This document shows positions 1,460 through 56,675 of a stretch of DNA of 64,000 nt, piece after piece. Position numbers and translations under genes: made by a program. The notes under the pieces are model-generated. The model was not told the DNA's origin. It made no database searches and was given only the letters and a program-made list of their open reading frames with translations. Every line of letters starts with the position of its first letter. Position 1 is the first letter of the stretch. The DNA lies in IMG/VR virus record IMGVR_UViG_3300032281_000616, positions 64,001 to 128,000 of that record. One strand, 5' to 3'. The DNA comes from a virus (Duplodnaviria; Caudoviricetes).

Positions 1460-2649
1460 TTCCACATTTTCAGAAATTTTCGATCCCTTGACCCGTATTC
1501 AGTATTCAAAACATCCATGAAACTACCAACATTCGGTTCAAGCTCTAGGAATCTAGTTGATCCAACTTTTCTCAAATCATCAACCAGACGATAATATCCT
1601 GCTTTATTCTTGAGAAGTTTTTGAATTTTATCCTCTAAATCTTCAGCAGTTGTGAATCTCAAGAAATCTGGAGCACTCGAATAAGTCACCAAATCCTGAC
1701 ACAGACAAGGAATTCCTAATTGAGCAGCTTCGATAAATTTGATATCAGATTTAGCCTTATTGAAATTATTATCTTGTAGGGGAGCGATGAACAATTGAGC
1801 ATTTAGAGAAGCTAAGAATGTGGGATATTCTAAAAGACTTTTCCATGGATGGAACTCAATCTCACGCGCCACAACGTAAGGCTGTAAAGGAGGTGGATAG
1901 GCACCAATAAAGACAAACTGATACTTATGTCGATTATCGATAATGAATTTTAGAACATGTGAAAAGTCATCCTGTTGACCCACTTTGTTTTTCATATCAA
2001 AATGAGCACCAGATCCAGCATATACTATTCTTGGTTTTCTTTTATATTTTTCGAAATTGTCGCAAATTTTTCGATAATCATACTGATGACCAATCCACCA
2101 ATAAGGCATGAAATTTGGAATCGCAGTGATCTCCTTTTTACCAGTCTTTTCTATATATAGATCACGCATGAACTTACACGTAACTGTAACCTCGTCCACC
2201 ATATTGATCATATCGATGCAATTTTGGCGAATATTGTCATCATCAAATCCAAATTTCGAAGCATTATAATCAGGAATTTCTTCTCTGAAAACTACATCAT
2301 CAACTTCATAAATTAACTTGAATCCCATTTCTGGTTGAATGGATTTCAAGAATTTCATGAATTCTTTATGATGATCGGTAGCTTGCCTCTGTAGGGTAAT
2401 TGTTTTAATATCTCTATAAAACGATTTATCTAAAATCATTTTCGTCATATCCGTCACATCACCAATCCCAGCTAATCTGATGTGATTGGATAAAAAGCCT
2501 CTTCGATAAGCCATGCATCCATCATTACCAGCATTAAAATTTAAATACCTATTCTCTTTTGGCTGTTCTTCTTGAACAACTGTTTTATTAGTATTCTGAA
2601 AAGGTGATGCTGGGAATGGGCTTACAAATGGACTAGAATTTAGAAACAT
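1456..2649 (-). CDS. GT-B fold (GT4-like) glycosyltransferase
   Basis: YEVDD motif, IVYAGSGAH, C-terminal FIAPLQDNNFNKAKSDIKFIEAAQLGIPCLC sugar-nucleotide binding motif; TAAATA-N5-ATG upstream. Confidence 0.8.
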   Translation of the reverse strand: MFLNSSPFVSPFPASPFQNTNKTVVQEEQPKENRYLNFNAGNDGCMAYRRGFLSNHIRLAGIGDVTDMTKMILDKSFYRDIKTITLQRQATDHHKEFMKFLKSIQPEMGFKLIYEVDDVVFREEIPDYNASKFGFDDDNIRQNCIDMINMVDEVTVTCKFMRDLYIEKTGKKEITAIPNFMPYWWIGHQYDYRKICDNFEKYKRKPRIVYAGSGAHFDMKNKVGQQDDFSHVLKFIIDNRHKYQFVFIGAYPPPLQPYVVAREIEFHPWKSLLEYPTFLASLNAQLFIAPLQDNNFNKAKSDIKFIEAAQLGIPCLCQDLVTYSSAPDFLRFTTAEDLEDKIQKLLKNKAGYYRLVDDLRKVGSTRFLELEPNVGSFMDVLNTEYGSRDRKFLKMWN

Positions 2650-2678
2650 ACCTATATTTAAATATCGATTTTATATTG

Positions 2679-4478
2679 TCAATTTATTCTCCTAGTGACA
2701 TTACCAGATTTTTCAAGCATGATGATTTCACCATCAATTTTATCCTTAACTTCCTTACGGTGAGATATCAAATAAACACATGTATCATTTTTATCGATTC
2801 TGTCCTTGATAATATTGATAATTTTCTCAAGACCAACTGTATCTACCGCAGAATCCAAACATTCGTCCATCCACTCAACATTTGATGTGACTTGATTGAT
2901 CTTCTTTCTCATATCAGAGAAAGCAAAACAACACGCAAAATCCAGAGACTTCTTTTCTGCTCCAGAAGCGTTTTTATAAGAAAATTGTTTACCTCCAGAA
3001 GTAACAATCTCTTCAAAATACTCATCAAACTTAACTCTAACACTTAGTCCAAGATCGATTAAATATTTTTCGATTGTGTTGTTTAAAAGATCTAGTAGTT
3101 TTTTAACTACAAAACTTTTTACACCTTCTTCTCCTAAGATAAACTTACAGATATCATAATCTGATAATTTTTGCTGTAATTCAGTAAGATTTTTACTTTC
3201 CTCATCGAGTCTTTCACTCGTAGAGTCAATATTCGCATCAAAGGACGCAATTGACAAATTAGATATATTCATATCATCATCCAAATCTTTTTTAGACTCT
3301 AATAATTGTTCCAAATTTTTCTCCAAATTTTGCTTTTTGAGAATATCTGTCTTAGCTTCTTCTAGGGATCTTTGGATTTGTGTCTGTTTGCTAACCAATT
3401 TATTTTTGGTTTCTCTATTTTTTACTAACTCTTTATGTAATTCTACAAGAGCATCTTCATAATTTTTCAACAAAATATTCGCAGATTCCTTTTCCACTTC
3501 GATCAGCTCAGTATGGGTATGATCAATATCCTGAAGACATTTTTCGCATCTGACACCTGATTTAATATCCGACATTTTCTTCAATTTATCTTTAATACCA
3601 GCAATAAAATGCTCATTGGTTGTTATAGTCATATGACATTCACCTATTTTAGAATCTATGTCGTAGATTGCTGATTCCAACTTTTTCAAATTGGACTGGA
3701 ACTTAGTTAGTTCCACTAATTGATATTTTTGAATTTCATCTGTGGCGCATTGTATTCTAACATCTAGATCATCTCTCCTCTTCCGTAGAATTTCGTCTCG
3801 TTCTTCGATTTGTTTTTTGATAATCTCTTTCTGATCAATTAAAGATTTTAGACTTCTTTCAATTTCAGAAACTTTAGCAGATGAAACATCTTTATCTTTT
3901 TTGGTTTCTGTGATCATTTTCTTTAGATCTTTCAACATAACCCCAAAAACATCAATAGAAAAAATGGTTTCTGTGAATGCACGTTTATCTTTAGCTTCCA
4001 TCTGCATAAATGGAACAGTATCTCGAACTGTTATAACATCACAGCAACGATAAATATCTGGATTTGTGGATAATAGATCACAAATATATTTGTCAGTTTC
4101 TTTAATAGTGGATTTTGTTATATCCTCATCACCTTCCCAAAGTTCCACCTTAGATGCTTTTTTAACGTGTCTTTTAATGGTGTATGATTTAGTTCCTTGA
4201 GATGTTTCAACGTCAAATTCAAGTTCGACCAAACCATTCGATTTTGTGACATTATTGATCACAAATTCTGATTTGATTTTGTTGATCGTTTCTCCAAACA
4301 AAGCAAAGAAATGAGCATTAGTCACGACAGTTTTACCGACACCGTTTTTACGGTCTGGGATATCAGAATTTATACCATCTATTTGGTGTAATCCCTTTTG
4401 AAAATCAATCTCGATTAATTCATTTCCAACACTTAGGAAATTTTTGATTTTTAAATTTTTATATTTTACATTTTTCAT
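2679..4478 (-). CDS. gp46: Recombination ATPase subunit, SbcC/Rad50-like (gp46)
   Basis: Walker A NGVGKT, coiled coil with CEKC zinc hook, SGAEKK signature, MDECLD Walker B, ISH H-loop. Confidence 0.95.
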   Translation of the reverse strand: MKNVKYKNLKIKNFLSVGNELIEIDFQKGLHQIDGINSDIPDRKNGVGKTVVTNAHFFALFGETINKIKSEFVINNVTKSNGLVELEFDVETSQGTKSYTIKRHVKKASKVELWEGDEDITKSTIKETDKYICDLLSTNPDIYRCCDVITVRDTVPFMQMEAKDKRAFTETIFSIDVFGVMLKDLKKMITETKKDKDVSSAKVSEIERSLKSLIDQKEIIKKQIEERDEILRKRRDDLDVRIQCATDEIQKYQLVELTKFQSNLKKLESAIYDIDSKIGECHMTITTNEHFIAGIKDKLKKMSDIKSGVRCEKCLQDIDHTHTELIEVEKESANILLKNYEDALVELHKELVKNRETKNKLVSKQTQIQRSLEEAKTDILKKQNLEKNLEQLLESKKDLDDDMNISNLSIASFDANIDSTSERLDEESKNLTELQQKLSDYDICKFILGEEGVKSFVVKKLLDLLNNTIEKYLIDLGLSVRVKFDEYFEEIVTSGGKQFSYKNASGAEKKSLDFACCFAFSDMRKKINQVTSNVEWMDECLDSAVDTVGLEKIINIIKDRIDKNDTCVYLISHRKEVKDKIDGEIIMLEKSGNVTRRIN

Positions 4479-4708
4479 CCTTGTATAGCGGCGATGCTTC
4501 CATCTTTTCTATAGATATATCTACAATTATCTAGATTATAACCATTCAAAATTTCTTCCTTAGTTTTCACTACATCCCTCGTATAAGGTTCTGTTGCTAT
4601 ATCCACCAAAAATCTCCCATCACTCAACACATCAACAATACGAATACCTCCCCAAGTTGTTTCAGATTTTTTTACTCTCCAATTTTGACCTTTCCTTATT
4701 TCTTTCAT
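4475..4708 (-). CDS. hypothetical protein
   Basis: 77 aa ORF translationally coupled between gp47 and gp46. Confidence 0.6.
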   Translation of the reverse strand: MKEIRKGQNWRVKKSETTWGGIRIVDVLSDGRFLVDIATEPYTRDVVKTKEEILNGYNLDNCRYIYRKDGSIAAIQG

Positions 4709-4897
4709 TCATTCATTCATTTCTCGGTAAATTTCTTCATAAGATTTGCAATATCTTTTGTGCCATATAGCACCAAACGTATCATTCCCTATAAAATCTC
4801 CTTTATGGTAATTACATTTAAATGCTGTTAGGATACCATTTGGTAAAATAACTCTAAAACATTTACCAATATAATTTTCTTCACTTATTTCTTTCAT
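4709..4897 (-). CDS. hypothetical protein
   Basis: 62 aa ORF in the operon; similar MKEI start to its neighbour. Confidence 0.55.
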   Translation of the reverse strand: MKEISEENYIGKCFRVILPNGILTAFKCNYHKGDFIGNDTFGAIWHKRYCKSYEEIYREMNE

Positions 4898-6312: not shown

Positions 6313-6756
6313 TTATTCGTAATCTCCATCGTTCTCATCTGATTCTAGATGTGGTTTAACATAAATATGGCCTTGAAAAGATGGATCATGCATCGCATCT
6401 TCATATACTCTTTGTTTGTATTCTTCCAAACCATCGTGTTGCCTTTTTTCCTTTTTAATTCTATTACAAAAAGCGTGCCAAGCTATTTGGTTGAAGTATC
6501 CGAATGGAGAAAACTCTGAATCAATTCGGAATTTTTTAGATTGTAAAGCAGCATACATTTTCACCAATGCATCACCAACCATCTCATCCTTCCATGTGTA
6601 ATTGATGAAGTTATATTTGTAACTAAGCCCTTCAGCTATTTTAACGAGGTTAATTGCAAGCTCATCTGTCATAATATCACTCTCGTAATATTTTTGAATC
6701 TGATCCTTGAAAACTTTCGGTGAGACATAATAATTTTCTTTATTTTCGTCCTTCAT
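6313..6756 (-). CDS. gp55: Late transcription sigma factor (gp55)
   Basis: NFINYTWKDEMVGDA...SPFGYFNQIAWHAFCNRIKKEKRQ matches the gp55 pattern; uvsW-gp55-gp47-gp46 synteny; ATG at 6756 overlaps the uvsW stop. Confidence 0.9.
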   Translation of the reverse strand: MKDENKENYYVSPKVFKDQIQKYYESDIMTDELAINLVKIAEGLSYKYNFINYTWKDEMVGDALVKMYAALQSKKFRIDSEFSPFGYFNQIAWHAFCNRIKKEKRQHDGLEEYKQRVYEDAMHDPSFQGHIYVKPHLESDENDGDYE

Positions 6757-8168
6757 AGTTCTGTCTCCTTCCATTCAATACTTTCTCCATCATAAAAAAT
6801 CTTTCTTTCCTCGACATGTTCCATCGAATACTTAAGATTATCACAGATATCAAATAAAGTCAACTTATTTTTTGATGGGTGTAACCTAAGTCCTCGACCA
6901 ATTGACTGAACGATTCTGATGAAACTTCTACCACCAGATAAAAATATAATATATGGAAGATTTTTGATATTAATACCTGTGGAGAAGCAAGTCGAGTTAG
7001 CTACTGTAACAATATTACTATTCTCCTCCATCTCATTTATTATCTTCATTCTTTCTTCGACAGGAACTTCCCCATTGATAAAAAAACATTTCTTATCAGA
7101 TATTGAAGACATCATATCAAGAGTATCCAATCCATGTTCGGTATGATTCACGATAATCAAAACATTACCATTCAATTTTCTGACAAGATTTCTAACTAAA
7201 GTGTGTCTCCTAGGAGATGTGTAAATGTATCTCAACTCTTGACGATAATTCATATTACGAGAATCGAGATGATTTATCTTAACTATTCGTATCTCCACAT
7301 TTGAAAGAAAACCTTCTTCTCTCAATTCTTTACTATTTTTTTCGTAAATTATAGGTCCGAATGTTCCAATAACCTTCCAGTAGTCGATTTTATCCTTTGG
7401 TAGAGTTCCAGTAAAACCGAATTTATGTGGAGTGTTTATTTTTTGTATTAATTTGGATACCGTTGAAGAAGCATTTATCTTGTGACATTCATCAACTAAT
7501 AATAGATCTACCTTTTTTATCCACTTCAAATTTTCAGAAAACTTTTTACAGAAATTCTCTGTATTACAAATAACAACATCCGTATTTTGAAGCTTCATTC
7601 CCTTTACTCCACCAGTCCAACCAGAATATGTAAAATTTACACCATACTCTTCAAAGTTTTCCAATAACTGTGATACTAAGTTTAATCCGGGAACAATTAA
7701 AAGGCATTTAAAGCTCTTTCCTGAGCATCTCCACACGTTTTCGATAAGAGACGCCTGACATAGAGACTTACCTGCTCCTGTAGCCCACAAAACGGTTCCA
7801 TAGCCTTGTTTCAAGGCAGAGTCTAAAGTCTCTAATCCATAATATCTATGCTTGTAATTTAGACCATCATATATTTCTGGAATTTCGAAATCGCATTCCA
7901 ATCTAGAACGAAATTCATTAGTTAACTCATACTCGATATCATTTTGTTTCAGAAAAGATAGAAGCTCATCATACAATCCAAAATCAAACATACCAGATTC
8001 CTGAATCGCGTATGTTGTGTCTGGTATTTTATAATTGTTAGCCTTTTTTCTAACAAAGTCTATATCTTCAACCTTCTGTGAGAAATGTTCACGAATCATA
8101 TTAAAGGTATTAAGATCGCATTTGATCTTACCCTTTCTATATGATTTGTTGTAATCTACAGTAATCAT
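6753..8168 (-). CDS. uvsW: SF2 DNA helicase UvsW
   Basis: ATGAGKS, DECH, GFTGT, FSTGINIKNL and QSIGRGLR motifs; T4-like synteny. Confidence 0.92.
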   Translation of the reverse strand: MITVDYNKSYRKGKIKCDLNTFNMIREHFSQKVEDIDFVRKKANNYKIPDTTYAIQESGMFDFGLYDELLSFLKQNDIEYELTNEFRSRLECDFEIPEIYDGLNYKHRYYGLETLDSALKQGYGTVLWATGAGKSLCQASLIENVWRCSGKSFKCLLIVPGLNLVSQLLENFEEYGVNFTYSGWTGGVKGMKLQNTDVVICNTENFCKKFSENLKWIKKVDLLLVDECHKINASSTVSKLIQKINTPHKFGFTGTLPKDKIDYWKVIGTFGPIIYEKNSKELREEGFLSNVEIRIVKINHLDSRNMNYRQELRYIYTSPRRHTLVRNLVRKLNGNVLIIVNHTEHGLDTLDMMSSISDKKCFFINGEVPVEERMKIINEMEENSNIVTVANSTCFSTGINIKNLPYIIFLSGGRSFIRIVQSIGRGLRLHPSKNKLTLFDICDNLKYSMEHVEERKIFYDGESIEWKETEL

Positions 8169-9412: not shown

Positions 9413-9474
9413 TGAAATTTTTAAATCCTCTATCTGTAATTTATAAAAATTCTACTACTATGTTAAATACACAC

Positions 9475-10365
9475 ATGATTAAAACATTTTATGTTTATAT
9501 GTTGTATGATGAGAATAAAACGATTAGATATATAGGAAAGGCTAATGATTCTTATAATAGAATACAAAGACATTTTAAAAGATCCAGTAATCCTCGGGTT
9601 AGACAATTCATAAACGATAATTGGTCTTCTGATATAGTTTATCGAAACTCTGACGAAAAATCCGTATTAAATGAGGAGATAAAACTCATCAAAGAACATA
9701 AAATAACACTTTACAACGAGAGTCGTGGTGGTGAGGGAGGTCCAACTAAAGATGGTGATGGAAATATGATAACTTTAAAAAATTTAAAAACGGGAGAAAT
9801 AAAAACTTTTAAATCCAACTTATTAGCTGCTAGATATATTGGGTGTTCTAATAGTTATATTGGAAAAATATCTTCTGGTAAATATTTGCATTATAAATTA
9901 ACATGGGTTCTTGAGCCTACTACCCAATACATTCTAGATAATCGACCCATCAGCAGAAATCACCCAAAACCCGGTTTACGGCACCCAGTCACAATTTTCG
10001 ATAATAAAGAAGAAAAATATTTATCATTCAATTCATTATCCGAATGTGGGAAGTTTATAAAAATCGCCATTGCAGATGTTTGCTTATTAGTAAGTGGAAA
10101 AGCTAAAACGTTGAAATACGGCAGATATACAATGGCACCATCTAAGGGGACATTCACAAAGTCTGTTGAAGTATATGACACAAAAGAAAAGAAAGTATTG
10201 AAATTCGATTCTCGTGTTCAATTTGCTAAACATTTTAATTTTGATAAGACTCACGCAAACTCCTTAATGAATGGCAAAATGAAATCTATAATTAAAAATA
10301 GATTTATAACCATCGAAACCGCTATTCAGATGTCTCTAATCGATGAGCATCCAAAAGGTTTTTGA
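9475..10365 (+). mobile_element. Free-standing GIY-YIG homing endonuclease with C-terminal NUMOD1-like repeats, antisense to the uvsY operon
   Basis: FYVYMLYD...RYIGKAND...RIQRH, then repeated 'KTFKSNLLAARYIG'-type units; TAAATA at 9464-9469 lies 5 nt before the ATG at 9475. Confidence 0.85.
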
Positions 10366-10729: not shown

Positions 10730-11196
10730 AAATTCAATAATTCTGGGTTTTCATAAATATTTCCAATGACTTCACTAAGAGCACGGTAAGAATAATCCAT
10801 ATAAGAAATCATGTTGTCTCGTTTTAATCCAAATCCGGGGGATACTCTAAACCAAATAACCTCGTATATATCGTGTGGAGATTCTTTAGAAAGTTCTCCA
10901 GTATTAAAAATTGGGGTGGGTTGTTTCACACCATAAATCTTTAAAATATCACCTTCATAAATTTCTTTTTCGTTTTTATCCTTTAATCCGGTGTATTGTT
11001 GAATCACATAATTTTCAGAACAATCCACATCACCACAATGTTTAAAATCTCCTCTAACTTTACCATAAAGAGTCAAATACAATTTTTCGTCATAATCTTT
11101 ATTTTTCGATAAAGAATTGTAAAACATTTCTCGATATGTTTCATTCCACAATCTAAATTTAAATTCTCTAGAATTCATATCATTAAATAATAACAT
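10726..11196 (-). CDS. YopX-family protein
   Basis: REFKFRLWN, QQYTGLKDKNEKEIYEGDIL, EVIGNIYENPELL. Confidence 0.9.
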   Translation of the reverse strand: MLLFNDMNSREFKFRLWNETYREMFYNSLSKNKDYDEKLYLTLYGKVRGDFKHCGDVDCSENYVIQQYTGLKDKNEKEIYEGDILKIYGVKQPTPIFNTGELSKESPHDIYEVIWFRVSPGFGLKRDNMISYMDYSYRALSEVIGNIYENPELLNL

Positions 11197-11451
11197 ATGA
11201 GCCTAAGATTGTCAAGTTTAGAAGAGAAAAAGATTGCCGATCTTTATGATCAGATTCTTGAAGACATGAGTGCTGGTGAGGGTGGCATGTTTGGCACTCC
11301 ACAAGACTCTGTGGATGATCTTGGTGAACCTAATGGGGACAATTATGCAGCGGGCGATACACGCATTCCTAAATCGATTTTCGAAGGTGATATTTTATCC
11401 AGAAATGGTTTGGTGAAGAAAAAGAAGAAAAAATCGAAAAGAAAAGCTTGA
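11197..11451 (+). CDS. hypothetical protein, acidic body with lysine-rich tail
   Basis: 84 aa ORF preceded by TAAATA (11184-11189). Confidence 0.65.
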   Translation: MSLRLSSLEEKKIADLYDQILEDMSAGEGGMFGTPQDSVDDLGEPNGDNYAAGDTRIPKSIFEGDILSRNGLVKKKKKKSKRKA

Positions 11452-11690
11452 CTTTTAGATTTTTGGGCACACTATAAGTACAATAATAGTCGCGGAGCGA
11501 CAAAACTGTAAATCTTTATTATTGTACATTGATTAAGATTAATACTAATAGATTATGATTTATTTTTATTAATAATTGTACCAGAGCCCGCCCACTACAC
11601 CCATAACTAATTTACGAAAAAGTAAAAGTCAATGGGGAAAATAGAAAAAGTTTAAAATAATTTCAATTTGACAGCTTATTAAGTAATTAC

Positions 11691-11798
11691 ATGTCAGATT
11701 GGATAGGATTACCTGAGAATATTAGTGATTATATGGGGATTATATACTTAATTAGAAATAATCATCCCGATAGTACAAAGAAATTATATATTAAATAA
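11691..11798 (+). pseudogene. Truncated small GIY-YIG gene (35 aa N-terminal remnant)
   Basis: MSDWIGLPENISDYMGIIYLIRNNHPDSTKKLYIK*; preceded by TAAGTA-N5-ATG; breaks at the YIG motif where the inverted ORF 11784-13199 ends. Confidence 0.7.
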
Positions 11799-13199
11799 TT
11801 CATCATTAACATCATTTATTATATTTTCATAAAAAGAAACATCAATAGATTCCGTATAACCATCACTTAATTCATCCTTAGTAAAAAATTTAAAATTGTT
11901 TTTATATTTTTTCTTTATAAATCTTTCTAATCTCAATATATCAACCCCAGAAGCCTTAACATTATAAACCGTATCAAACTTTGAATTTGATAATCTACAT
12001 TGCGCCAATTTTCTCTTATGTATATTATTTGTTATTCCAATTTTTAGACCTTCTTTTCCACTAAAATGAGTGATTTTGTGTATATAGAAAAATCCATCTT
12101 TGCTTTGATTGAATCCCTTTGTACAACAGAATGGACATCCAGATTTACTGTTTATAACACAATCAATTTTAGTGAACCATGTGTTTTCACAAACATCACA
12201 TCTAAACTTTGCTTTTTGTTTAACTCCGGGTGGATTATGATCCAATAATGTTATTTCTTTTCCTTTCAATCTTTCGCATATATCTCCATATGTCAACTTC
12301 GCCTTACCTATACATTTTCCACATTGATATGATGGATTTCTTAAAATTATAGAAGGGGTGATACATATATGATGTCCATTTGGACAGGTCATTTTAATTT
12401 TTTTTGTTGAGTTTTTTATAATTTCAGTGGAATCTACAGAAAACCCGCGAAGTTTTAAGAAATATTTATATTGCTCGTCTGTTGGCCTCCATCTGTTGCC
12501 CAAACTTTTATCTGTAAAATTGCATAGTATGCATCCATTAGAACTCAGCAATTTGGTTGGAGCAGTTTCCCAACTATATCCACAAGAACTACAGGAAACG
12601 TTCCATTTTTCACAATTTTTATTCACGATATTAATATGATTGGTCAAACAATGATCGGATACACATTGTTCACAAAAAATATTTTTCAAAAATTTATCAG
12701 ACTGGAATAGGTTTTTATGACCTTTCTGACAATTTGATGATATGAATGATTCATCAATTGAAAAATTATAAAAGTTTAGATTCTTAAGCTTTTTTATATT
12801 TTTATTGACTTGTTTAGAATTTATTTTCTCTTTATGTTTATTGGTTCTACATATTTTACACCCTATTGTGGATTCTATTTTAAAAATATCATATATTCTT
12901 TTAAATGTTTCAGTTTCACAATGTAAACATTTAAGTTTGTGTTTTTTTAAAGTTGGATTATAATTCCCAACCAATTGAAATCCATAACTATTCAATTTTT
13001 TATTCATCGTTTCTGTGTTCAAACAATCACCACTACAGAATTTACAACTTCTTTTTCTATTAACAACGGAATACGGGACATTTTTATAAATGTGTCCATT
13101 ATCACACATTAATAGGCATGATTTGTAAAACTTTTCATAATTTGAATGTATTCCCCACCCAAATGGTTTCAATTTGATGTTGGCTTCTTCTAAATTCAT
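11784..13199 (-). mobile_element. Putative homing endonuclease: tandem CxxxH/CxxC zinc-ribbon repeats plus C-terminal GIY-YIG-like domain
   Basis: Many CxxC/CxxGH units; C-terminal GFFYIHKI...LKIGITNNIHKR. Confidence 0.7.
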
Positions 13200-13591
13200 A
13201 TATCTTTTCTATAAAATTTTCCGTTTATATTATTATTATAATAATTATCTTTCTCCAAAACCTCGTTTATGAATAAATATTTTAATTCATAATATGTCAA
13301 TTGTTTTTCAAAATTACATAAATGTAATATTTCCCTCTTTATAATATCCCCGGTTGATATATCAATCTTTAATTCTTCATTTGAACCACAATATTTTTTC
13401 CAATCGCTTTCTCTCTTGATTCTTTTTGTTTTACTCCCTATCTTTTTTTTGATAATGTGGTATAAAAATTTTTTCCCAACATATGTTTTATTTTTTGTAA
13501 TATTTGTTATTTTATAAACAAAACCAAAACAATTTATAGGAAAGTCTTCCAAGGTTTTAAGCTCAACGTCATTAAAGATCCAATCTGTCAT
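13196..13591 (-). CDS. Small GIY-YIG nuclease-family protein
   Basis: GFVYKITNITKNKTYVGKK...ESDWKKYCGS; TAAATA-N5-ATG promoter. Confidence 0.85.
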   Translation of the reverse strand: MTDWIFNDVELKTLEDFPINCFGFVYKITNITKNKTYVGKKFLYHIIKKKIGSKTKRIKRESDWKKYCGSNEELKIDISTGDIIKREILHLCNFEKQLTYYELKYLFINEVLEKDNYYNNNINGKFYRKDI

Positions 13592-44514: not shown

Positions 44515-44964
44515 ATGGCTAATTATATTTTTCAGACAAATCTTTTATCTGCCGCTAAAACAGGATTCCCACCATTAGTGGGAACATCATTATCAGCTAC
44601 TGGCGTATCTTTTCTTTCTGGTGCTGGTGTAGTATTTGCATCCAGAAATGTGGGTATTGTTTCTCTATCGACTGATGACGTTGGTATTGCATTTAATCCA
44701 GTTACTCTCACTATTGCAACCAGTTCTCTACCAACATTCAATCTTACAGCTTATCCATCGGTCACAGTCAATGTTGCTGGATCTGTCTTTAATATCCCAG
44801 CTAATTTAACAACATCAAATTTCGCTGTGGTTAAAACGACTCCCGGTGATTACACAGTATTTCCTTGGTTATCTACAACCACAACTGTTCCAACATCTGC
44901 TCTATCAGCCACTCATGAAGTATCTACACAAGATTCTCGTCGTAAGCGTCTATTGGGTTATTAA
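44515..44964 (+). CDS. Ser/Thr-rich late (probably virion) protein
   Basis: TAAATA-N5-ATG; beta-strand-rich composition. Confidence 0.7.
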   Translation: MANYIFQTNLLSAAKTGFPPLVGTSLSATGVSFLSGAGVVFASRNVGIVSLSTDDVGIAFNPVTLTIATSSLPTFNLTAYPSVTVNVAGSVFNIPANLTTSNFAVVKTTPGDYTVFPWLSTTTTVPTSALSATHEVSTQDSRRKRLLGY

Positions 44965-45708: not shown

Positions 45709-46446
45709 GTGTTTGTGAGAGGTAGTGGTAGTGGTCAAGAGTATAAAAGGGTTGATATTAAACCATATAGGGGAATTGTAGTAAAAACAAACGATCCTCT
45801 AGGGTTGAATCGTGTCAAAGTTTATATACCCGAGTTATCTAATCAACCATTTGATTCTTGGTTTGAGCAATATGATCAAATCCATGTTAAAGGTGTTGGT
45901 GAAAATTTAAAAACATTATGGAATGATAAAGAGACTAATGGTGATTGGACAGATGTTGATATTTTTGAAAAGATAGCTCAAGCTATACCATGGGCTGAAC
46001 AATGCTCACCTATAGTTGGAGAATCTAATAATTTCAGATTTTATAAAGACGGTAAACTATGTGTTATATCGGATTGTAATTATGGGGAAGGATTTTCTAC
46101 TACAGAAATACCAACTTTATCCAGTGGTTCATTTTCTCCAGCTTTTCTGTATGAAAATTTTGGAACCCGATTAGGTGATGCTTTCTCGAACCCAATTTCA
46201 AATTTATCTGGTAAATGTAATCCATATTCGTTTTCGTATGCACCCTCTAAACATGTTAACAAAGGCAAAGGATTGTTTGGAATCCCAGAAGTTGGGTCAA
46301 AGGTTTGGGTATTTCATTACGAAGGAGATTCTAATTATCCTGTTTATTTCGGTAAATATCATGATTATAGAGAATTATCTCTTATCGATGATACAGATAA
46401 TATGAATATCCTAGGAGTCAAGAAATCCATAGACTTTGACAGTTGA
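45709..46446 (+). CDS. gp5: Baseplate hub/spike gp5-like protein, N-terminal OB-fold part
   Basis: YRGIVVKTNDPLGLNRVKVYIP...IPWA...GLFGIPEVGSKVWVFHYEGDSNYPVYFG. Confidence 0.8.
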   Translation: MFVRGSGSGQEYKRVDIKPYRGIVVKTNDPLGLNRVKVYIPELSNQPFDSWFEQYDQIHVKGVGENLKTLWNDKETNGDWTDVDIFEKIAQAIPWAEQCSPIVGESNNFRFYKDGKLCVISDCNYGEGFSTTEIPTLSSGSFSPAFLYENFGTRLGDAFSNPISNLSGKCNPYSFSYAPSKHVNKGKGLFGIPEVGSKVWVFHYEGDSNYPVYFGKYHDYRELSLIDDTDNMNILGVKKSIDFDS

Positions 46447-46462
46447 TATCTTAAATACTAAT

Positions 46463-48049
46463 ATGTCTCTTATATATAGGAACAAAACAATCTTGAATCA
46501 ACGTGGTGGATCTTTAGATATCGATAACACCACTGAACAAGAGAAGATAAAATTATCTCATAGATCTGGATCTAATATAAATTTTACCAATGTCGTAAAC
46601 TCGGAATTAGCTACAAATAATAAACAGACTAATGTAGTAAATGATATTTTTGAAACTTCTGGTGGTGATAAAACAGTTTATACCAATAAGGTTTCGACAA
46701 ATAGAGTTGGAGAAAATTCTTATACTTTAAAAGGATTTACTAATGAGTCTCAAATTCAAGCATTTGAAGATTGGAAAAATACTTATAGAGAAATAGCACT
46801 AAAGAATTCCGAATTTAAAACCACCAGAGGTGGATATAGTATTCCTAATGGAACAACTACAAATCTAAATGGAGAAAAATCAAAAAATCCAACCCTTGGT
46901 AATGATATTCTATCGGTTTCTAACACATTCACTGGATATAAGGGTATTCCTATAAGGAAAAGTGATAAGGATGAAGTGGTTGAATTCTCCAGAGTCTTAG
47001 ATTATAAAAAAACCAAACCAGCTACAAATAGAAAGTTAGATTCTAAACTTATAGAAAAATCCGCTGGTATATCTGGATCAAATGCTCCCGGTGTTGTCGA
47101 GTTTGGTGGTTCTGTATCTTCATCGACTGAAGGTGGAACATGGACATTGAATTCTATTAGTCTTGATAAGGATATTTTAGATATTCAAGATAAATTAACT
47201 CCAATAGAATCTAAAATGGGTAATGGTGGAGATGATATTAATTTTATTAAACGTCATAGATATGAACAAATCGGAGCGACCATAAACGATTATCCATCTA
47301 TAAGAATAGATGAAAAGGGTAGGAGTCAACCACTAGAGATGTTAATATCTACAATTGGTGCTTATAAAAATCACGATTATGTTCCTCATGTAGAGGAGAT
47401 AGATAACAGTTCTAATTTTCCATGTGGGAATGACGATAAAGTAGTAGGGAATAGAATCGCTAGAACGGTTGGCTCTGGTGGTATCAATTTAAAAACTACT
47501 GGACCTATGGAATTGGGTGGTGCTACTTTAAAGGCAGGATTCAAAAAAATAAATATAAACGCTTCTCATGGAGTTCAGATATCTTCTGAGAATGGATTGG
47601 AATTACAATCCTTAAAAACGATTGTGTTGAGAACAAACCGTCAGGTATATGTTGAGTCATCATTAGGAATTAATAAAAATTTGATCGTTGGTGGTGGTCA
47701 ATATGTAGAAGGAGAATTGTATTGTCAGCATATAACAGCACCTTTAGAGGTTCATCAGACCCAAGACACAACTGTATTGGGTAAATTCGCTACAGATGCT
47801 AATAGAAGATTAGTAATCAGTGAGACATTGATAGGTGGTCAATGGTATCCATCATATGCCTTAGCTGACGACGATCTTATTTTGAATTATCCCCACAGTC
47901 ACCATCATCACGGTATACCTATGAGGTTAACTACCAGTAATGAAATGGTGAGAGAATTCGCTCATAAAGAGGGTATGAATTCTCATGGAACAACGGTTCA
48001 ATCTTTACCTCAAATACACGAGAGAAAGTTAGCTCAAAAGTTAGTGTAA
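46463..48049 (+). CDS. Probable gp5/VgrG-like C-terminal beta-helix (spike) part
   Basis: IKLSHRSGSNI and repeated beta-strand units; TAAATA-N5-ATG at 46452-46465. Confidence 0.65.
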   Translation: MSLIYRNKTILNQRGGSLDIDNTTEQEKIKLSHRSGSNINFTNVVNSELATNNKQTNVVNDIFETSGGDKTVYTNKVSTNRVGENSYTLKGFTNESQIQAFEDWKNTYREIALKNSEFKTTRGGYSIPNGTTTNLNGEKSKNPTLGNDILSVSNTFTGYKGIPIRKSDKDEVVEFSRVLDYKKTKPATNRKLDSKLIEKSAGISGSNAPGVVEFGGSVSSSTEGGTWTLNSISLDKDILDIQDKLTPIESKMGNGGDDINFIKRHRYEQIGATINDYPSIRIDEKGRSQPLEMLISTIGAYKNHDYVPHVEEIDNSSNFPCGNDDKVVGNRIARTVGSGGINLKTTGPMELGGATLKAGFKKININASHGVQISSENGLELQSLKTIVLRTNRQVYVESSLGINKNLIVGGGQYVEGELYCQHITAPLEVHQTQDTTVLGKFATDANRRLVISETLIGGQWYPSYALADDDLILNYPHSHHHHGIPMRLTTSNEMVREFAHKEGMNSHGTTVQSLPQIHERKLAQKLV

Positions 48050-51182: not shown

Positions 51183-51337
51183 AATTTTATATAAATGTTC
51201 GTGTAAACTTTGCTTGATTCTAAACCATCTTCCTCTCAAAGTCAACTCGTTTCGTTCGATTATTTAGTCTCCAAAATGGCTCAAATCAAGAGCGTAGAAA
51301 TATATCCGATATGATAAATAAAGGACTAAATAAGATT

Positions 51338-54307
51338 ATGATAGTTAAAAAGATACTAATGTTGTTAACCGAAAACAATGCATCTGATATCGTTTCTGGT
51401 AATATAGTTAAAAGAGTCAAGGATATATTCACGAATCTATATTATACCGATGATGTGACAGAAAAGAACGATATCGGTATGAATCAGACAGATAAAATCA
51501 ATTCGAGAACATATATTTTACCTTATTTTGATCAAGAAGACGATGCCGTAACTGTACAAATATTGTACAGAATGATGAGAATACTCAGAAATTATAAAAA
51601 CACACAAGTTAGAAATTATGACCAACTGGAGATATCTGTGAAAGATTTGTTGAAGGATAGAGTGAAGGAGGTTGAGTCTGAAACTAGGAAAATCATAATT
51701 GATCATACCAAGACATCATACGGAAAGGTTTTAGTTACTTATCCAGATGATATATCACCAAGATCTAATTTATCTAAACAAATAAAACAAGCCCAAAATA
51801 TATACTTTTCTCAAAATAATACACCGAAGGAATCAGATAATTACGGTAATTACGATTACCCAAGATTTAAATTTTTCAGTAAAAACAAAGAATCTTTAGG
51901 AGATAAACAATTCTATGTGAAATTAGAATTGGCTAAGTTGATAAATGCTTTAGTTTTTCCTAATGTAACAGTCGAAGAGATTGGAAATACAACATCGAGT
52001 GAAGAAAATCCTATAACAAATAACAAAGAAACTAAATCATCAGAATTATCAATCAAATTTGTAAAAACTATAAACACCCCATATGGTAAAAAGCATCAAA
52101 TAGAATTACCACAATCAAAATCTTATGGTGTGTATCAAGATGCTAAGTCTAGGGGATATACACCAAAATTGATGGCTTTCGATTTCAATACCAAAAATCA
52201 TTTAATATCCAGCAGCCCAAGTGAGTATAAAATACTCAAATCTTTATTTGATAAATACGGTTTAAACACATCTGAATTAGATTCATTATATTCCGATGTT
52301 GAAGAACCGATAAAAAATGAATCCGAAAAAGGATTAATATTTACGAATTTAGAGTCCGATAAAATTGGATTATCGTATGTAAGAAATCAACCAATTGAAT
52401 CGAAGGAATTTTTGAAAAATTTAATACAGTATATATTTTATGATTATTCTTGGAATTCTACATTATATCGATACGAAGTATCAGCGGATTATAAGCAGTT
52501 AATGATGTTTAAAGATATAATGGAAAGATTTGAATTTGATATAAAGGAATTAGAAAAAATAATAAAGGAAAAGATTAAGATTGGTGTAATAGATGATTCA
52601 GAAAAGGCTGAAGGAGAATTGAATCCCCAATTTAAAAATATTATAGATAATAAATTAAATGAGAATTATCCCAATAGTAAATTTGAACTATACGATTTAC
52701 AAAAAGAAGGTGTTAAATTTTTAACATCTAGAAAGTATGCTATTCTAGGCTCCGAAACAGGAGCCGGGAAAACTATACAATTTATATATGCTGCTGATTT
52801 ATTGACCAGAGAAAAGAAAGAAAATGTATTGATCGTCACTTTGAAAGCTGTTCAAAAACAAATAGTGCAAGAAATAATAGATGTTTTGGGAGAAGAGGCG
52901 AGATCAGAAATATCGACAGATCCAATGAACCCAAAACGATGGACGATTCTTAGATATCCCAATTTTTCAAGTGGAAATAATTTAGAAAATGTCATAGATA
53001 AATTATTATTTACAAAATTTAAAGTTCTTATTCTAGACGAATTGCACAGAGTCAAACACGAAAAACGAGGAAGTAAAGTAGTTATAACATCGGCAAACAT
53101 AGAAAAGATATCCAAAAATATACCCATAAGGTGGGGAGCTACAGCAACATTATCATCTAACGAACCTATAAATGTTAGAAATCAACTAAGATTATTGGGT
53201 CATCCATTGGGTAATATATCGATTGGAAAATTCAAAAAAGAATTTTGTGGTATGGTTCTTAAAGATATAAGACGAAAACCATCTAAAAAGGTTTATAACG
53301 ACGAGGATGATTTAGACAATGATTACGGACAAAATTATGGTGGCGCGACAAAGGCGTATGTGAACGGAACCATAGAGCAACAGTTGGAAGCAGCCGAAAA
53401 TTTACATCGGTGGTTATCCTTAACGGGTGTTTATATCAGACATAGTAAAAAGGATATGAGAGCGGCCAAAGGAGAAAAAATGCCTGATGCCAATATCGAA
53501 AAAAAATCAAATCCTATAAATAAAGACCTTTTAAAAATCATGGTAGACCACAAATTAAAATCGTACAAAGACGAAGATTTGGAAATATCTAAACTTATAG
53601 CATTTAGAGAGAGTATTGCTCAACTCAAGGTGCAGGATACCGTGAATGAAACAATCAAAATTATAACAGAAAACCAAAACGATTCAACACACAACTATGC
53701 AAAATCTAAAGTTCTAATATTTACAAATTTTGCTCAGTCAGGGAAGTCATTATATACACAATTATCGGAAAAATTGCAAAATATAAATCCAAAATGGAAA
53801 GTTTACACATATTTGAGCGGAACACCAAAAGATCAAATAATTAATGTTAAGAAAAATATGGAACATAAGGATTCGAAGGTTCTGATAATGAGTATGAAAA
53901 TGGGTGGGACTGGTATTTCATTTCCGAATACTTTTGCTAATATGTTAATCAATGATTTTGATTGGACCCCAGAATCGATAGAACAAAGTGAGGGTAGAAT
54001 TTTTAGAATCAATACTGTGCAAAATGTCAATATCAAGTATATGTTAGCTGATGGGAAAGATCAAGAACTTTTTGAAAAAGTGGAATTGAAGAAAAAGATA
54101 GCTGAAATTATTCAAACATATAGACAGAATTATTTGGAATCAGAAAATGGTGCAGAGTGGGTTTCTAAAATAGTTGATTTGCAGAAAGAATTGATAAAGA
54201 TAGATGATGATATCAATTCCATTACGGCTAGTGACGTAAGTGGAAATTTAGCTGAATCGTTTGAAGAATTCTTCAATATATACTCATCCATTAGAATACT
54301 TAAATAA
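51338..54307 (+). CDS. SNF2-family helicase-like ATPase with long N-terminal extension
   Basis: ETGAGKT, LDELH, ATAT, LIFTNF, GTGISF..DWTP..EQSEGRIFRI; TAAATA-N5-ATG. Confidence 0.88.
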   Translation: MIVKKILMLLTENNASDIVSGNIVKRVKDIFTNLYYTDDVTEKNDIGMNQTDKINSRTYILPYFDQEDDAVTVQILYRMMRILRNYKNTQVRNYDQLEISVKDLLKDRVKEVESETRKIIIDHTKTSYGKVLVTYPDDISPRSNLSKQIKQAQNIYFSQNNTPKESDNYGNYDYPRFKFFSKNKESLGDKQFYVKLELAKLINALVFPNVTVEEIGNTTSSEENPITNNKETKSSELSIKFVKTINTPYGKKHQIELPQSKSYGVYQDAKSRGYTPKLMAFDFNTKNHLISSSPSEYKILKSLFDKYGLNTSELDSLYSDVEEPIKNESEKGLIFTNLESDKIGLSYVRNQPIESKEFLKNLIQYIFYDYSWNSTLYRYEVSADYKQLMMFKDIMERFEFDIKELEKIIKEKIKIGVIDDSEKAEGELNPQFKNIIDNKLNENYPNSKFELYDLQKEGVKFLTSRKYAILGSETGAGKTIQFIYAADLLTREKKENVLIVTLKAVQKQIVQEIIDVLGEEARSEISTDPMNPKRWTILRYPNFSSGNNLENVIDKLLFTKFKVLILDELHRVKHEKRGSKVVITSANIEKISKNIPIRWGATATLSSNEPINVRNQLRLLGHPLGNISIGKFKKEFCGMVLKDIRRKPSKKVYNDEDDLDNDYGQNYGGATKAYVNGTIEQQLEAAENLHRWLSLTGVYIRHSKKDMRAAKGEKMPDANIEKKSNPINKDLLKIMVDHKLKSYKDEDLEISKLIAFRESIAQLKVQDTVNETIKIITENQNDSTHNYAKSKVLIFTNFAQSGKSLYTQLSEKLQNINPKWKVYTYLSGTPKDQIINVKKNMEHKDSKVLIMSMKMGGTGISFPNTFANMLINDFDWTPESIEQSEGRIFRINTVQNVNIKYMLADGKDQELFEKVELKKKIAEIIQTYRQNYLESENGAEWVSKIVDLQKELIKIDDDINSITASDVSGNLAESFEEFFNIYSSIRILK

Positions 54308-54311
54308 GATT

Positions 54312-54653
54312 ATGGACAAAGGTTTATTTGATGCGTATGAGAACATTCTAGAGGAATCTTGGGGTGGATTAGCAATGAATCGCCCACCTATTAAAGGGGG
54401 CGCACAGGCACCACAGGACGCTAAGAACACCCTATCTAGTGCTAGTTCTAAGATCGGTATAGAGCAGGGTAGTTTATTCAACCAATCTCAATCTAGTGGA
54501 CAGAATCCTTATGAGCAAGAAGAATCTGGAGCTATTGACAAACAAAGAGTATTTGATATAATTGATCATCTATCAAAGGATTTGGATTCATCTAAGATCA
54601 CCGATAGAACTGCTGTAATGGTTCTTGGTAAACTCAAAAAATTAATAAAATGA
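54312..54653 (+). CDS. hypothetical late protein
   Basis: TAAATA-N5-ATG at 54301-54314. Confidence 0.7.
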   Translation: MDKGLFDAYENILEESWGGLAMNRPPIKGGAQAPQDAKNTLSSASSKIGIEQGSLFNQSQSSGQNPYEQEESGAIDKQRVFDIIDHLSKDLDSSKITDRTAVMVLGKLKKLIK

Positions 54654-54922: not shown

Positions 54923-54995
54923 CGCAGGTAGGTGGTCTGGTTGACCATTCCGGGTTCATATCCCGGAGAGGAGGATTCGATTTCCTCACCCGCAA
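54923..54995 (+). tRNA. tRNA-fMet (CAT), initiator type
   Basis: C1xA72 mismatch, GGG/CCC anticodon-stem pairs, TT-CAT-AT loop, TTCGA T-loop. Confidence 0.85.
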
Positions 54996-55001
54996 CATAA
55001 T

Positions 55002-55098
55002 GGGTACATAGGCTAATGCGCGAAAATGAAATAGAGCTAAGTGTATCACAGGTTGTGACGATAAGATTAGCTAGAGGTTCAACTCCTCCGTGTGCTCA
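55002..55098 (+). ncRNA. tRNA-like RNA with acceptor and T arm but a non-canonical core
   Basis: GGGTACA(T)/(G)TGTGCTC acceptor, GAGG-TTCAACT-CCTC T arm, GCTAAT/ATTAGC long internal helix. Confidence 0.5.
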
Positions 55099-55108
55099 CA
55101 ATTCAAAC

Positions 55109-55179
55109 TGGAATATCGTCTAATGGTAAGACAACGCTTTCATACGGCGAGAACGACAATTCGATTTTGTCTATTCCTA
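55109..55179 (+). tRNA. tRNA with CAT anticodon (Met or Ile2)
   Basis: GGAATA/TATTCC acceptor, GTCT/AGAC D stem, TT-CAT-AC loop, GACAA/TTGTC T stem. Confidence 0.75.
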
Positions 55180-55184
55180 CATAT

Positions 55185-55257
55185 GCGTGTTAACGATGGG
55201 ATTATGATTTGCTCGTAATGCGAATCATGAAGGTTTCGATTACCTTCAGCCGCACCA
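55185..55257 (+). ncRNA. D-armless tRNA-like RNA with 9 bp central stem and encoded CCA
   Basis: GCG(T)GTT/AGCCGC acceptor, ATGATTTGC-TCGTAAT-GCGAATCAT, GAAGGT-TTCGATT-ACCTTC, 3' ACCA. Confidence 0.55.
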
Positions 55258-55418
55258 TGAAATACATCAAAGCTATTGACTTTATTCAGTGGATATGGAA
55301 GAATACATTCAACACAGAGAAATCAAAATCACAAATTAAAAGAGATCTGGAACAAGGTTCTGTTAAATTGAATGATAGAAAAATTAAAGTGGATGATGTG
55401 TTTGAGTTTGAAGACTAA
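55257..55418 (+). CDS. S4-like RNA-binding mini-protein (53 aa)
   Basis: SKSQIKRDLEQGSVKLNDRKI..DD matches the S4 alpha-L motif. Confidence 0.7.
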   Translation: MKYIKAIDFIQWIWKNTFNTEKSKSQIKRDLEQGSVKLNDRKIKVDDVFEFED

Positions 55419-55419
55419 T

Positions 55420-55508
55420 GTGCGGGCGGCAACGATGGTGGTGTTGCATTGGTCTGTAAAACCAATCCCTACGGGTAAACAATGTGGATTCGAATTCCAC
55501 CCTTCACA
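55420..55508 (+). tRNA. tRNA-Tyr (GTA)
   Basis: TTGGT-CTGTAAA-ACCAA anticodon arm, variable arm, GTGGA-TTCGAAT-TCCAC T arm. Confidence 0.9.
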
Positions 55509-55590
55509 CCGATGTTGGATAGCACCCAACTGATTTGGATAACAAAAGCGTGATAAGTCCAAAGAGAACCAAAAATAAAACGCGCACAAA

Positions 55591-55662
55591 TCCCATGTAG
55601 CACAACAGCAGTGCGTTCGACTGTTAATCGAAAGGTTGTAGGGGCAGAACCTACCTTGGGAG
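55591..55662 (+). tRNA. tRNA-Asn (GTT)
   Basis: TCCCATG/CTTGGGA acceptor, TTCGA-CTGTTAA-TCGAA, G73. Confidence 0.88.
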
Positions 55663-55749
55663 CGAGGTTGATGTATAATTCTAACGACGACGAAGTATGA
55701 AAAAACTGTTGAATTGGCTGTGATCCGAGGCGATATGATCGGATAATAA

Positions 55750-55844
55750 CTAGGTGTTGCGATAGCTTGGTAATCGGGCCGACTTGGAATCGGTTGTGGG
55801 CAGAAAGAGTCTGTCTATCGGGGGTTCGAATCCCTCCACCTAGA
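55750..55844 (+). tRNA. tRNA with TGG (Pro) anticodon and a class II long variable arm
   Basis: Perfect CTAGGTG/CACCTAG acceptor, GCCGA-CTTGGAA-TCGGT, 25 nt variable region with an 8 bp stem, GGGGG-TTCGAAT-CCCTC T arm. Confidence 0.85.
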
Positions 55845-55845
55845 C

Positions 55846-55920
55846 GGGTGTGTAATTCAATGGTAGAATAACTCCCTTTTAAGGAGTAAGCTACAGGTTC
55901 GAGTCCTGTCACACTCACCA
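55846..55920 (+). tRNA. tRNA-Lys (TTT), CCA encoded
   Basis: GGGTGTG/CACACTC, ACTCC-CTTTTAA-GGAGT, ACAGG-TTCGAGT-CCTGT. Confidence 0.93.
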
Positions 55921-55925
55921 ATTTA

Positions 55926-56001
55926 TCCGAGTATAGCTTTAATGTAGAAGCCTCCGACTGTGAATCGGACTGTTCTGGTTCAAGTCCAGATGCGCGGACC
56001 A
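55926..56001 (+). tRNA. tRNA-His (GTG), CCA encoded, U-1:A73
   Basis: TCCGA-CTGTGAA-TCGGA anticodon arm, TCTGG-TTCAAGT-CCAGA T arm. Confidence 0.88.
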
Positions 56002-56012
56002 TAAATAAGTAT

Positions 56013-56675
56013 ATGACTTGCGATACCGTAGTAATCAGTGATATTCATCTAGGTAGTCCTGTGTGTAATAGAGAAAAAGTGTTGAAGGTTCTTTCTTTAG
56101 ACTTTAAAAGACTTATTATAAATGGTGATTTATTCGATAATTATTCATTTAAAAGATTTAATAAAAAAGACTGGGATATTCTAAGTAAACTTAGAAAATT
56201 AAGTAAAACACATAATATCATCTTTATCCATGGCAACCATGATTCGAATGGAGAATTTATGAGTGCTATTATGGGTATGGAATTTGTCGAATACTACGAA
56301 TTTGAACTCAACAATTCTAAATTCTTTTTGGAACATGGTGATAAATATGATCATTGGATCAAACATAAACCATTTATTACATGGTTCTTTACTGGGATAT
56401 ATTACTGGTTACAGAGAATCGATAAATCACATCGAATTTCCAGACTGACAAAAAAATTAAGCAAATCTTGGATTCAAGCTAAGGATATTGTTAGAACTAA
56501 GTTTGTAGAAAAGCGTGGTAAAAAATATGATGTCTTAATGGCAGGTCACACACACCATGCTGAAATCGTTGATTGTGGTGCCTGTGTTTATGTAAACAGT
56601 GGATCTTTCTGTGAAGTAAAATGTTCGTATATTAAAATTTATGAACATGGAAACTTTGAATTAATTTTCATGTGA
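56013..56675 (+). CDS. Metallophosphoesterase (LpxH/UDP-2,3-diacylglucosamine hydrolase-like)
   Basis: SDIHLG, NGDLFD, GNHD, EHGDKYD, GHTH motifs; TAAATA-N5-ATG. Confidence 0.85.
   Translation: MTCDTVVISDIHLGSPVCNREKVLKVLSLDFKRLIINGDLFDNYSFKRFNKKDWDILSKLRKLSKTHNIIFIHGNHDSNGEFMSAIMGMEFVEYYEFELNNSKFFLEHGDKYDHWIKHKPFITWFFTGIYYWLQRIDKSHRISRLTKKLSKSWIQAKDIVRTKFVEKRGKKYDVLMAGHTHHAEIVDCGACVYVNSGSFCEVKCSYIKIYEHGNFELIFM

Follow-up and report, generated by a model that had tools for sequence, protein, structure and literature searches.

TAAATA boxes five bases before start codons suggest leaderless late mRNAs in a distant T4-like phage

In this study, we analyzed a DNA stretch of 64,000 nucleotides (the window) representing bases 64001-128000 of the 202,205-bp virus record IMGVR_UViG_3300032281_000616, which carries direct terminal repeats and is estimated to be 100% complete. 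In the window and throughout the genome of this distant T4-like phage, the hexamer TAAATA is found exactly five nucleotides (nt) before many ATG start codons (TAAATA-N5-ATG, with N5 for any five bases). We consider it likely that the late mRNAs of the phage are leaderless and originate from promoters of the gp55 type that are fused to the ATG. In the proposed mechanism, TAAATA, in its extended form R-Y-TAAATA, would be the late promoter read by the host RNA polymerase together with a gp55-like factor, and a box five bases before the ATG would make the A of the start codon the +1 position. Thereby, about 66 of about 280 genes (about 25 in the window) would be made as leaderless late mRNAs, in whose translation the ribosome and the initiator tRNA bind directly to the 5'-terminal AUG. 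Early genes would use sigma70-type promoters with or without the box AAACACTA and with the -10 hexamer six bases before the ATG, and most other genes would be joined to the preceding gene by stop-start overlaps (ATGA).

The window contains 19 TAAATA-N5-ATG sites, compared with 2.77 ± 1.64 expected from 100 dinucleotide shuffles, none of which reached 19. A preliminary description of this DNA had listed 20 sites with TAAATA or TAAGTA five nt before the ATG, and all 17 plus-strand and three minus-strand coordinates were verified. Of these, 18 are TAAATA and precede open reading frames (ORFs) of 96-989 amino acids (aa), the other two being TAAGTA. The 19th TAAATA site (62375-62388, minus strand) opens 10 codons only and is probably due to chance. 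The listed sites are as follows (window coordinates, as used throughout unless the genome is named):

2647-2660 (minus strand): TAAATA-N5-ATG of a 397-aa glycosyltransferase gene (1456-2649)
9464-9477 (plus strand): TAAATA-N5-ATG of a 296-aa ORF; the frame is already open at 9406, and the motif speaks for a start at the ATG of 9475
13589-13602 (minus strand): TAAATA-N5-ATG of a 131-aa gene, in PHROG NAD synthetase / homing-endonuclease-like
14472-14485 (plus strand): TAAATA-N5-ATG of a 149-aa gene; the upstream gene ends with the TAA of the box
15293-15306 (plus strand): TAAATA-N5-ATG of a 147-aa gene; the upstream gene ends with the TAA of the box
27850-27863 (plus strand): TAAATA-N5-ATG of a 181-aa gene
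31511-31524 (plus strand): TAAATA-N5-ATG of the portal gene, 604 aa; box at N5/N6 in 4/4 orthologues found
33621-33634 (minus strand): TAAATA-N5-ATG of a 96-aa gene; this site and the one at 33641 stand back to back in a divergent spacer of 28 nt
33641-33654 (plus strand): TAAATA-N5-ATG of the gp13-like head-tail adaptor gene, 379 aa
38369-38382 (plus strand): TAAATA-N5-ATG of the prohead protease gene, 223 aa
39049-39062 (plus strand): TAAATA-N5-ATG of a 206-aa gene; the protease gene ends with the TAA of the box
39691-39704 (plus strand): TAAATA-N5-ATG of a 298-aa gene; the capsid gene follows just downstream
42269-42282 (plus strand): TAAATA-N5-ATG of a 523-aa endonuclease-like gene, with TTGACA 17 nt upstream of the box
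44504-44517 (plus strand): TAAATA-N5-ATG of a 149-aa gene
46452-46465 (plus strand): TAAATA-N5-ATG of a 528-aa gene
51327-51340 (plus strand): TAAATA-N5-ATG of a 989-aa helicase-like gene, the ORF of which is also open from the ATG at 51311
54301-54314 (plus strand): TAAATA-N5-ATG of a 113-aa gene; box and helicase stop codon overlap
56002-56015 (plus strand): TAAATA-N5-ATG of a 220-aa phosphoesterase gene; the box starts one base after the tRNA-His gene (55927-56001)
28425-28438 (plus strand): TAAGTA-N5-ATG of a 111-aa ORF, a variant without statistical support
11680-11693 (plus strand): TAAGTA-N5-ATG opening 35 codons only, probably no gene start

Further sites with a spacing of 6-7 nt had also been mentioned and were confirmed, namely two at N6 (ATGs at 18578 and 43947) and four at N7 (ATGs at 11197, 26778, 34827 and, on the minus strand, 19651):

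18566-18580 (plus strand): TAAATA-N6-ATG of a 77-aa ORF
43935-43949 (plus strand): TAAATA-N6-ATG of a 173-aa gene; N6 in 6/6 orthologues
34814-34829 (plus strand): TAAATA-N7-ATG of an 888-aa fibre-like gene; orthologues with N6 (17) or N7 (5)
19649-19664 (minus strand): TAAATA-N7-ATG of a phoH-like gene, 246 aa
26765-26780 (plus strand): TAAATA-N7-ATG of a 143-aa gene
11184-11199 (plus strand): TAAATA-N7-ATG of an 84-aa ORF

At the phoH-like gene, TAAATA is followed by ATGGAGG and then by the ATG, so that GGAGG abuts the start and an out-of-frame ATG stands right after the box; the placement of this start between the two ATGs appears ambiguous.

The spacing histogram against randomized controls suggested in the preliminary description was run for the full genome. 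For TAAATA-Nd-ATG with d = 0-10, the counts are 9, 3, 5, 2, 1, 54, 20, 9, 8, 8, and 5. The sharp mode at N5 (54 vs. 7.6 ± 2.7 in second-order Markov simulations) has a shoulder at N6 and N7 above a background of about 5, and 52 of the 54 N5 sites open an ORF of ≥60 aa. After TAAATA-N5, 54 ATG stand against five GTG and three TTG, and this strong preference for ATG also speaks for a promoter. Other hexamers of the same composition show no N5 peak. TAAGTA has no spacing peak genome-wide (four sites at N5 vs. 0-4 at other spacings); as it is not enriched and one of its two window sites opens only 35 codons, it was rejected as a variant of the box, and its earlier treatment as an equivalent hexamer was not borne out. 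Also rejected was the full T4 octamer TATAAATA as the motif, with only two sites at N5. An origin of the pattern by chance, or as a by-product of an AT-rich composition and of TAA stop codons before starts, could draw on the GC content of the genome (33.8%) and on the boxes containing the stop codon of the upstream gene. Given the shuffles, the same-composition hexamers and the conservation of the box in the loci of 80 relatives, this explanation can practically be dismissed.

These relatives were chosen from 238 IMG/VR contigs encoding a related capsid protein, 80 of which (capsid identity 64-95%) were examined. The N5 peak is the same in all identity bands above 72% (57, 70, 122, and 117 N5 sites, with mostly 2-20 at other spacings), and in two loci of 64% identity N5 still has the highest count (8). 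Orthologous starts keep the box with diverged flanks, as seen for the protease gene (box at N5-N7 in 56/57 orthologues), the gene starting at 44515 (N5 in 63/63) and the gp13-like gene (N5/N6 in 13/14). For the gene starting at 39702, 30 of 69 orthologues have the box at N5/N6 and 39 are without it; in the boxless upstream regions shown, a stop codon stands a few bases before the ATG, and these orthologues look like stop-start coupled genes. If the mRNAs are leaderless, such a swap between an own promoter and stop-start coupling for one gene among relatives would show how genomes of this kind evolve.

Late transcription of T4 is a textbook system, in which the box TATAAATA at -13 to -6 acts with gp55, gp33, and the gp45 clamp. 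The position of the T4 late box and the variant CTAAATA of phage Aeh1, which starts at -12, are documented (PMC1524935), and in the P23 template five bases lie between the box and the next purine (PMC7892883). By T4 numbering, TAAATA of the phage analyzed here would occupy -11 to -6 and, with five further bases, the A of the ATG would correspond to +1. A sequence logo of 52 sites, in which TAAATA is invariant by definition of the search, was compared with the features of T4 late promoters (PMC2988020). The logo has a purine at -13 in 42/52 sites, a pyrimidine at -12 in 43/52 and a pyrimidine at -1 in 46/52; the N5 segment consists of A/T to about 78% vs. 66% genome-wide, and there is no sign of a -35 element, since no column from -41 to -14 reaches 60% for any base. 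It thus fits the description of T4 late promoters. The likeness to T4 comprises the TAAATA core, the lack of a -35 element, the AT-rich segment after the box, the encoded gp55 and gp45-like clamp and the box before structural genes, whereas -13/-12 are purine/pyrimidine here and T/A in T4. With C or T at -12, the flanks are closer to CTAAATA of Aeh1 than to T4. The pyrimidine at -1 was rejected as a discriminating feature on its own, because motif-less genes are also T-rich at this position.

The claim that gp55 is encoded in the window was corroborated by matches to a PHROG family, to the T4 gp55 structure chain and to two other phage gp55 proteins:

6313-6774 (minus strand): gp55 homologue, 153 aa, phrog_234 with E = 4.5e-25

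The E values are 3.6e-9 for the T4 gp55 chain 7d7c_F and about 1e-16 for gp55 of phages HTVC008M and S-SCSM1. A gp45-like clamp gene at genome position 46782-47504 (minus strand) matches phrog_223 (DNA polymerase processivity factor; E = 2.4e-8, 189/222 profile positions); the clamp was not found by Pfam PF09116 and PF02916, by BLAST with the HTVC008M clamp or by a small profile. The predicted gp45-like clamp is divergent. The third component, gp33, is small and poorly conserved.

Within genes, TAAATA occurs at about 58% of the codon-shuffle expectation, both in sense (98 vs. 167.5; z = -5.4) and in antisense orientation (90 vs. 152.8; z = -5.3), and the hexamers TAAAAT, TATAAA, and AAATAT of the same composition show no such depletion. 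Avoidance also on the antisense strand fits a signal on the DNA level and not on the mRNA level. In addition, 16 genes of the TAAATA class face a divergent neighbour with spacers of mostly 28-74 nt, and the 28-nt common spacer of the divergent pair 33623/33652 consists of two back-to-back boxes. Because of these divergent spacers and of the box directly after tRNA-His, coupling to an upstream ORF cannot explain the respective boxes.

Class counts are approximate, since the gene set comes from crude calls by codon usage, in which each of the 281 genes was started at the first ATG of its ORF. Among the 281 starts, 66 are late-type (about 25 in the window), 37 early-type and 18 sigma70-type, while 108 overlap the preceding same-strand gene or come ≤15 nt after it; the remaining 52 fit no class, and some of these are plainly mis-called. 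The commonest junction between same-strand genes is a 4-nt overlap (32 cases), e.g. the stop-start ATGA. Each gene thus appears to have either its own promoter at the ATG or coupling to the preceding gene. Almost no Shine-Dalgarno (SD) motifs had been noticed in the preliminary description, and this held: SD-like 4-mers at -18 to -4 were found in 1/59 genes of the TAAATA class, 2/37 of the early class and 3/15 of the sigma70-type (TTGAC) class, and over all five start classes in 28/271 genes, with 8.9% at random positions. SD-like words before the starts are thus at or below the random level. Ribosomal protein S21, which is present in some aquatic phages, was searched for in this phage and not found.

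The early and sigma70-type starts have a comparable layout. About 50 small genes on the minus strand at genome position 136-193 kb carry AAACACTA at -23 to -16, followed by N3, TAnnnT, N6, and the ATG, and AAACACTA occurs 73 times vs. 11.4 ± 3.2 expected. Starts of this type in the window are located at 56701-56723 and 58427-58449. Some copies have TTGACT at -35, which places the box inside the spacer of a sigma70-type promoter. CACTA-N3-TANNNT is found at N6 before the ATG in 35/53 cases, and the spacing of TTGAC-spacer-TANNNT to the ATG peaks at N6/N7; the latter combination is enriched (56 vs. 29.7 ± 4.4), its canonical form being TTGACT-N16/17-TAnnnT. Examples of both classes, all three serving as comparison, are:

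56687-56723 (plus strand): TTGACT, AAACACTA box, TATGAT, N6 and ATG of a 78-aa gene; putative sigma70-type/early promoter abutting the ATG
28768-28807 (plus strand): TTGACT-N17-TATAAT-N8-ATG of a 537-aa helicase gene
1422-1459 (minus strand): TTGACT-N16-TAGAAT-N7-ATG of a 138-aa gene

In Deinococcus, N6 after the -10 hexamer has been validated as the spacing of leaderless genes (PMC12340547), and with this hexamer six bases before the ATG, +1 would fall on the A in the early class, too. The late box stands one base closer than the sigma70 hexamer, as would be predicted from late-box geometry. The classes are sorted by modules. A 58-kb early block on the minus strand has 34 early-type and three TAAATA-type starts (3/110 genes with box), four of six genes antisense to this block are late-type, and late-type starts dominate outside it; such sorting is unlike a general translation enhancer. 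The architecture is genome-wide and includes the early genes, beyond the scope of structural genes in the preliminary description. That description had connected the box with structural genes, which stands for the portal, gp13-like, protease and fibre-like genes. Non-structural genes for a glycosyltransferase, a helicase, homing endonucleases and a phosphoesterase also follow a box, and the major capsid gene is boxless.

The same observations bear on the explanation that TAAATA-N5 is an A/U-rich, unstructured standby site or enhancer in the mRNA of a host with SD-independent initiation, the real promoters being located elsewhere. This would agree with the absence of SD sites from the phage, with the A/purine-rich, SD-less leader of the capsid gene and with the many box genes starting 4-9 nt after a same-strand gene. 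Nevertheless, we regard it as improbable, as TAAATA is avoided equally on the antisense strand, the spacing is fixed to one base without an apparent rationale in rRNA pairing, and the box agrees letter for letter with the late-box core of the gp55 family in a phage that encodes gp55. Also, boxes stand in a divergent 28-nt spacer and directly after a tRNA gene, and hardly any occur in the early block, where a different promoter-like motif takes the corresponding position. A Bacteroidota-like leader, named in the preliminary description as what could overturn the promoter, was checked as well: TAnnTTTG, the -7 motif of Bacteroidota, shows no enrichment (253 vs. 282 ± 15), in contrast to TTGAC-spacer-TAnnnT. 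The sigma70-like -35/-10 elements argue against a Bacteroidota-type polymerase and say nothing more on the host.

If TAAATA is a late promoter, transcription could also start a few bases off the A, giving leaders of 1-5 nt, or expression could come mainly from sites of the N6/N7 type. The shoulder at N6 and N7, the N6/N7 spacing in orthologues of the gene starting at 34827, the N6 spacing in those of the gene starting at 43947 and a gp55 homologue shorter than that of T4 would be in favour of this variant, which has a small but real chance of being correct; the sharp N5 mode equals the T4 distance, and a transcript beginning downstream of the A would lack an intact AUG. Since leaders of 1-2 nt behave as leaderless, it differs little in mechanism from a start on the A itself.

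Several observations weigh against leaderless late mRNAs beginning with the start codon. The distance to +1 is borrowed from the T4 gp55 of 185 aa for a homologue of 153 aa and might differ, and the clamp match is weak. Furthermore, 42/59 genes of the TAAATA class have a same-strand gene upstream, about half of them within 4-9 nt, and would thus also be present on read-through transcripts, where reinitiation could serve for their translation. Finally, the major capsid protein, the most abundant late protein, is encoded by a gene without box:

40599-40669 (plus strand): leader of the major capsid gene, 68 nt, conserved, without TAAATA; hairpin at about 40621-40641 and purine-rich AGAAAGAAA tract

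A TAAATA box was found in 0/50 capsid gene orthologues. The leader lacks an SD sequence; its hairpin (ATGAGGnn-loop-nnCCTGAA) shows compensatory changes at three of six pairs in 15 relatives and is followed by the purine-rich tract. The leader may combine a 5' stabilizer or processing hairpin with a non-SD ribosome-loading site. Such a capsid gene shows that translation in the host can begin on A-rich mRNAs with a leader and without SD, and the region of the box may have a dual role.

The conserved hairpin hints at RNA-level elements in this clade and, together with the tight packing of genes, lends something to the idea that the motif is an RNA-processing site at which a nuclease cuts polycistronic late RNA just before the ATGs. 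We rate this as very improbable, because it predicts neither the avoidance on both strands nor the match to the gp55 box nor boxes at divergent pairs, and no nuclease candidate is tied to the motif. Searching RNA runs with a 9.9-kb query listed no RNA run, and with a 2-kb query two freshwater metatranscriptome runs were obtained (shares 0.07-0.08). Metatranscriptome contigs cover essentially only the capsid gene of relatives and cannot show transcript starts. One near-identical contig from an RNA library, a type of library that can contain DNA, begins at 40631, 36 nt upstream of the capsid ATG, and fits a leadered capsid mRNA.

Taken as a proposal of gp55-type late promoters with +1 on the A of the ATG, the preliminary description fared well, as every sequence-level prediction examined held. 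It had also named an initiator tRNA, and the following gene looks like one:

54923-54996 (plus strand): tRNA-Met(CAT) with the initiator hallmarks C1:A72 mismatch and G29-31:C39-41

The mismatch and the three G:C pairs of the anticodon stem support the assignment, whereas U11:A24 is present instead of A11:U24. This gene belongs to a cluster of seven tRNA genes (54923-58420: Met, Tyr, Pro, Lys, His, Gly, Gln), of which those for Tyr and Pro are unusually long according to ARAGORN (91 and 96 nt).

In a 50-kb part of the T4 genome, most boxes precede the ATG by 15-30 nt, and nearly all have GGAG or GAGG in between. In 41 kb of cyanophage S-SCSM1 they stand 21-35 nt upstream of the ATG; the N5 rule was not found in either stretch. 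T4 has an SD sequence between box and ATG, whereas here the ATG stands at the predicted +1 without SD. Free-standing homing-endonuclease-like genes (GIY-YIG and HNH PHROG families) are located at genome positions 45965-46768, 159150-159845, and 189084-189854 and at window positions 13196-13591 and 42280-43851. Some of them have a TAAATA-N5-ATG of their own; in T4 segE, by comparison, the late box stands 28 nt before the start.

Among Thermus phages, phiYS40 is documented to make its middle and late mRNAs without leaders (PMC3594737). phiYS40 and P23-45 resemble the phage described here as lytic phages with middle/late transcripts lacking leaders and SD sites. They are unrelated, have a Deinococcus-Thermus host rich in leaderless genes and no gp55-type late box, and their 5' ends were mapped. 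In Deinococcus-Thermus, ORFs adjoining a -10 element are documented (PMC12340547). In leaderless genes of Deinococcus-Thermus and Actinobacteria, TANNNT stands 6-7 bp before ORFs starting with ATG, as in the early and sigma70 classes (TAnnnT-N6-ATG); those are cellular housekeeping promoters, whereas here the same logic would be extended to a phage late sigma factor with a spacing one base shorter. The N5 spacing is shared by HTVC008M, a cultured T4-like SAR11 phage with a GC content of about 34% and an encoded gp55: its first 100 kb contain 12 TAAATA-N5-ATG, compared with about 2 for each other spacing, and of these 12 at least 11 are on annotated coding sequence starts. Its capsid protein is only 30% identical, which makes it a separate lineage. 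No mention of TAAATA-N5 in HTVC008M was found in the literature, and in a non-exhaustive search no publication turned up on a fusion of gp55-type late promoters with start codons in the T4 family. We judge the arrangement to be known parts joined anew, i.e. T4 late transcription and a leaderless layout like that of the Thermus phages.

This distant T4-like phage encodes the portal, prohead protease, gp13-like adaptor, gp15-like protein, major capsid protein, gp46/SbcC-like protein, and ribonucleotide reductase. Its capsid protein shares about 33% identity with cyanomyophage capsid proteins, and blastn with the capsid region gave no match to cultured phages. Since the capsid protein is <60% identical to that of every cultured phage in the collection compared, no close isolate or host can be named. 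DNA runs containing the whole stretch are metagenomes, and those holding parts of it are labelled freshwater.

From the combined results, it seems somewhat more probable than the opposite that a freshwater T4-like clade and, separately, HTVC008M have given up SD-led initiation. All promoter classes would then be fused to the AUG, making the promoter the sole expression signal, other cistrons would be served by stop-start reinitiation, and the phage tRNA may help 70S loading on 5'-terminal AUGs. If the late mRNAs are leaderless, gene finders expecting ribosome binding sites would misplace starts here, where several ORFs are open upstream of the motif-linked ATG, and one 8-bp box plus ATG would represent a minimal late-expression cassette. 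Hosts would have to translate 5'-AUG mRNAs efficiently, which bears on initiation in SD-poor, streamlined aquatic bacteria, and in abundant aquatic bacteria and their phages, leaderless translation would be a major way of gene expression that has been overlooked.

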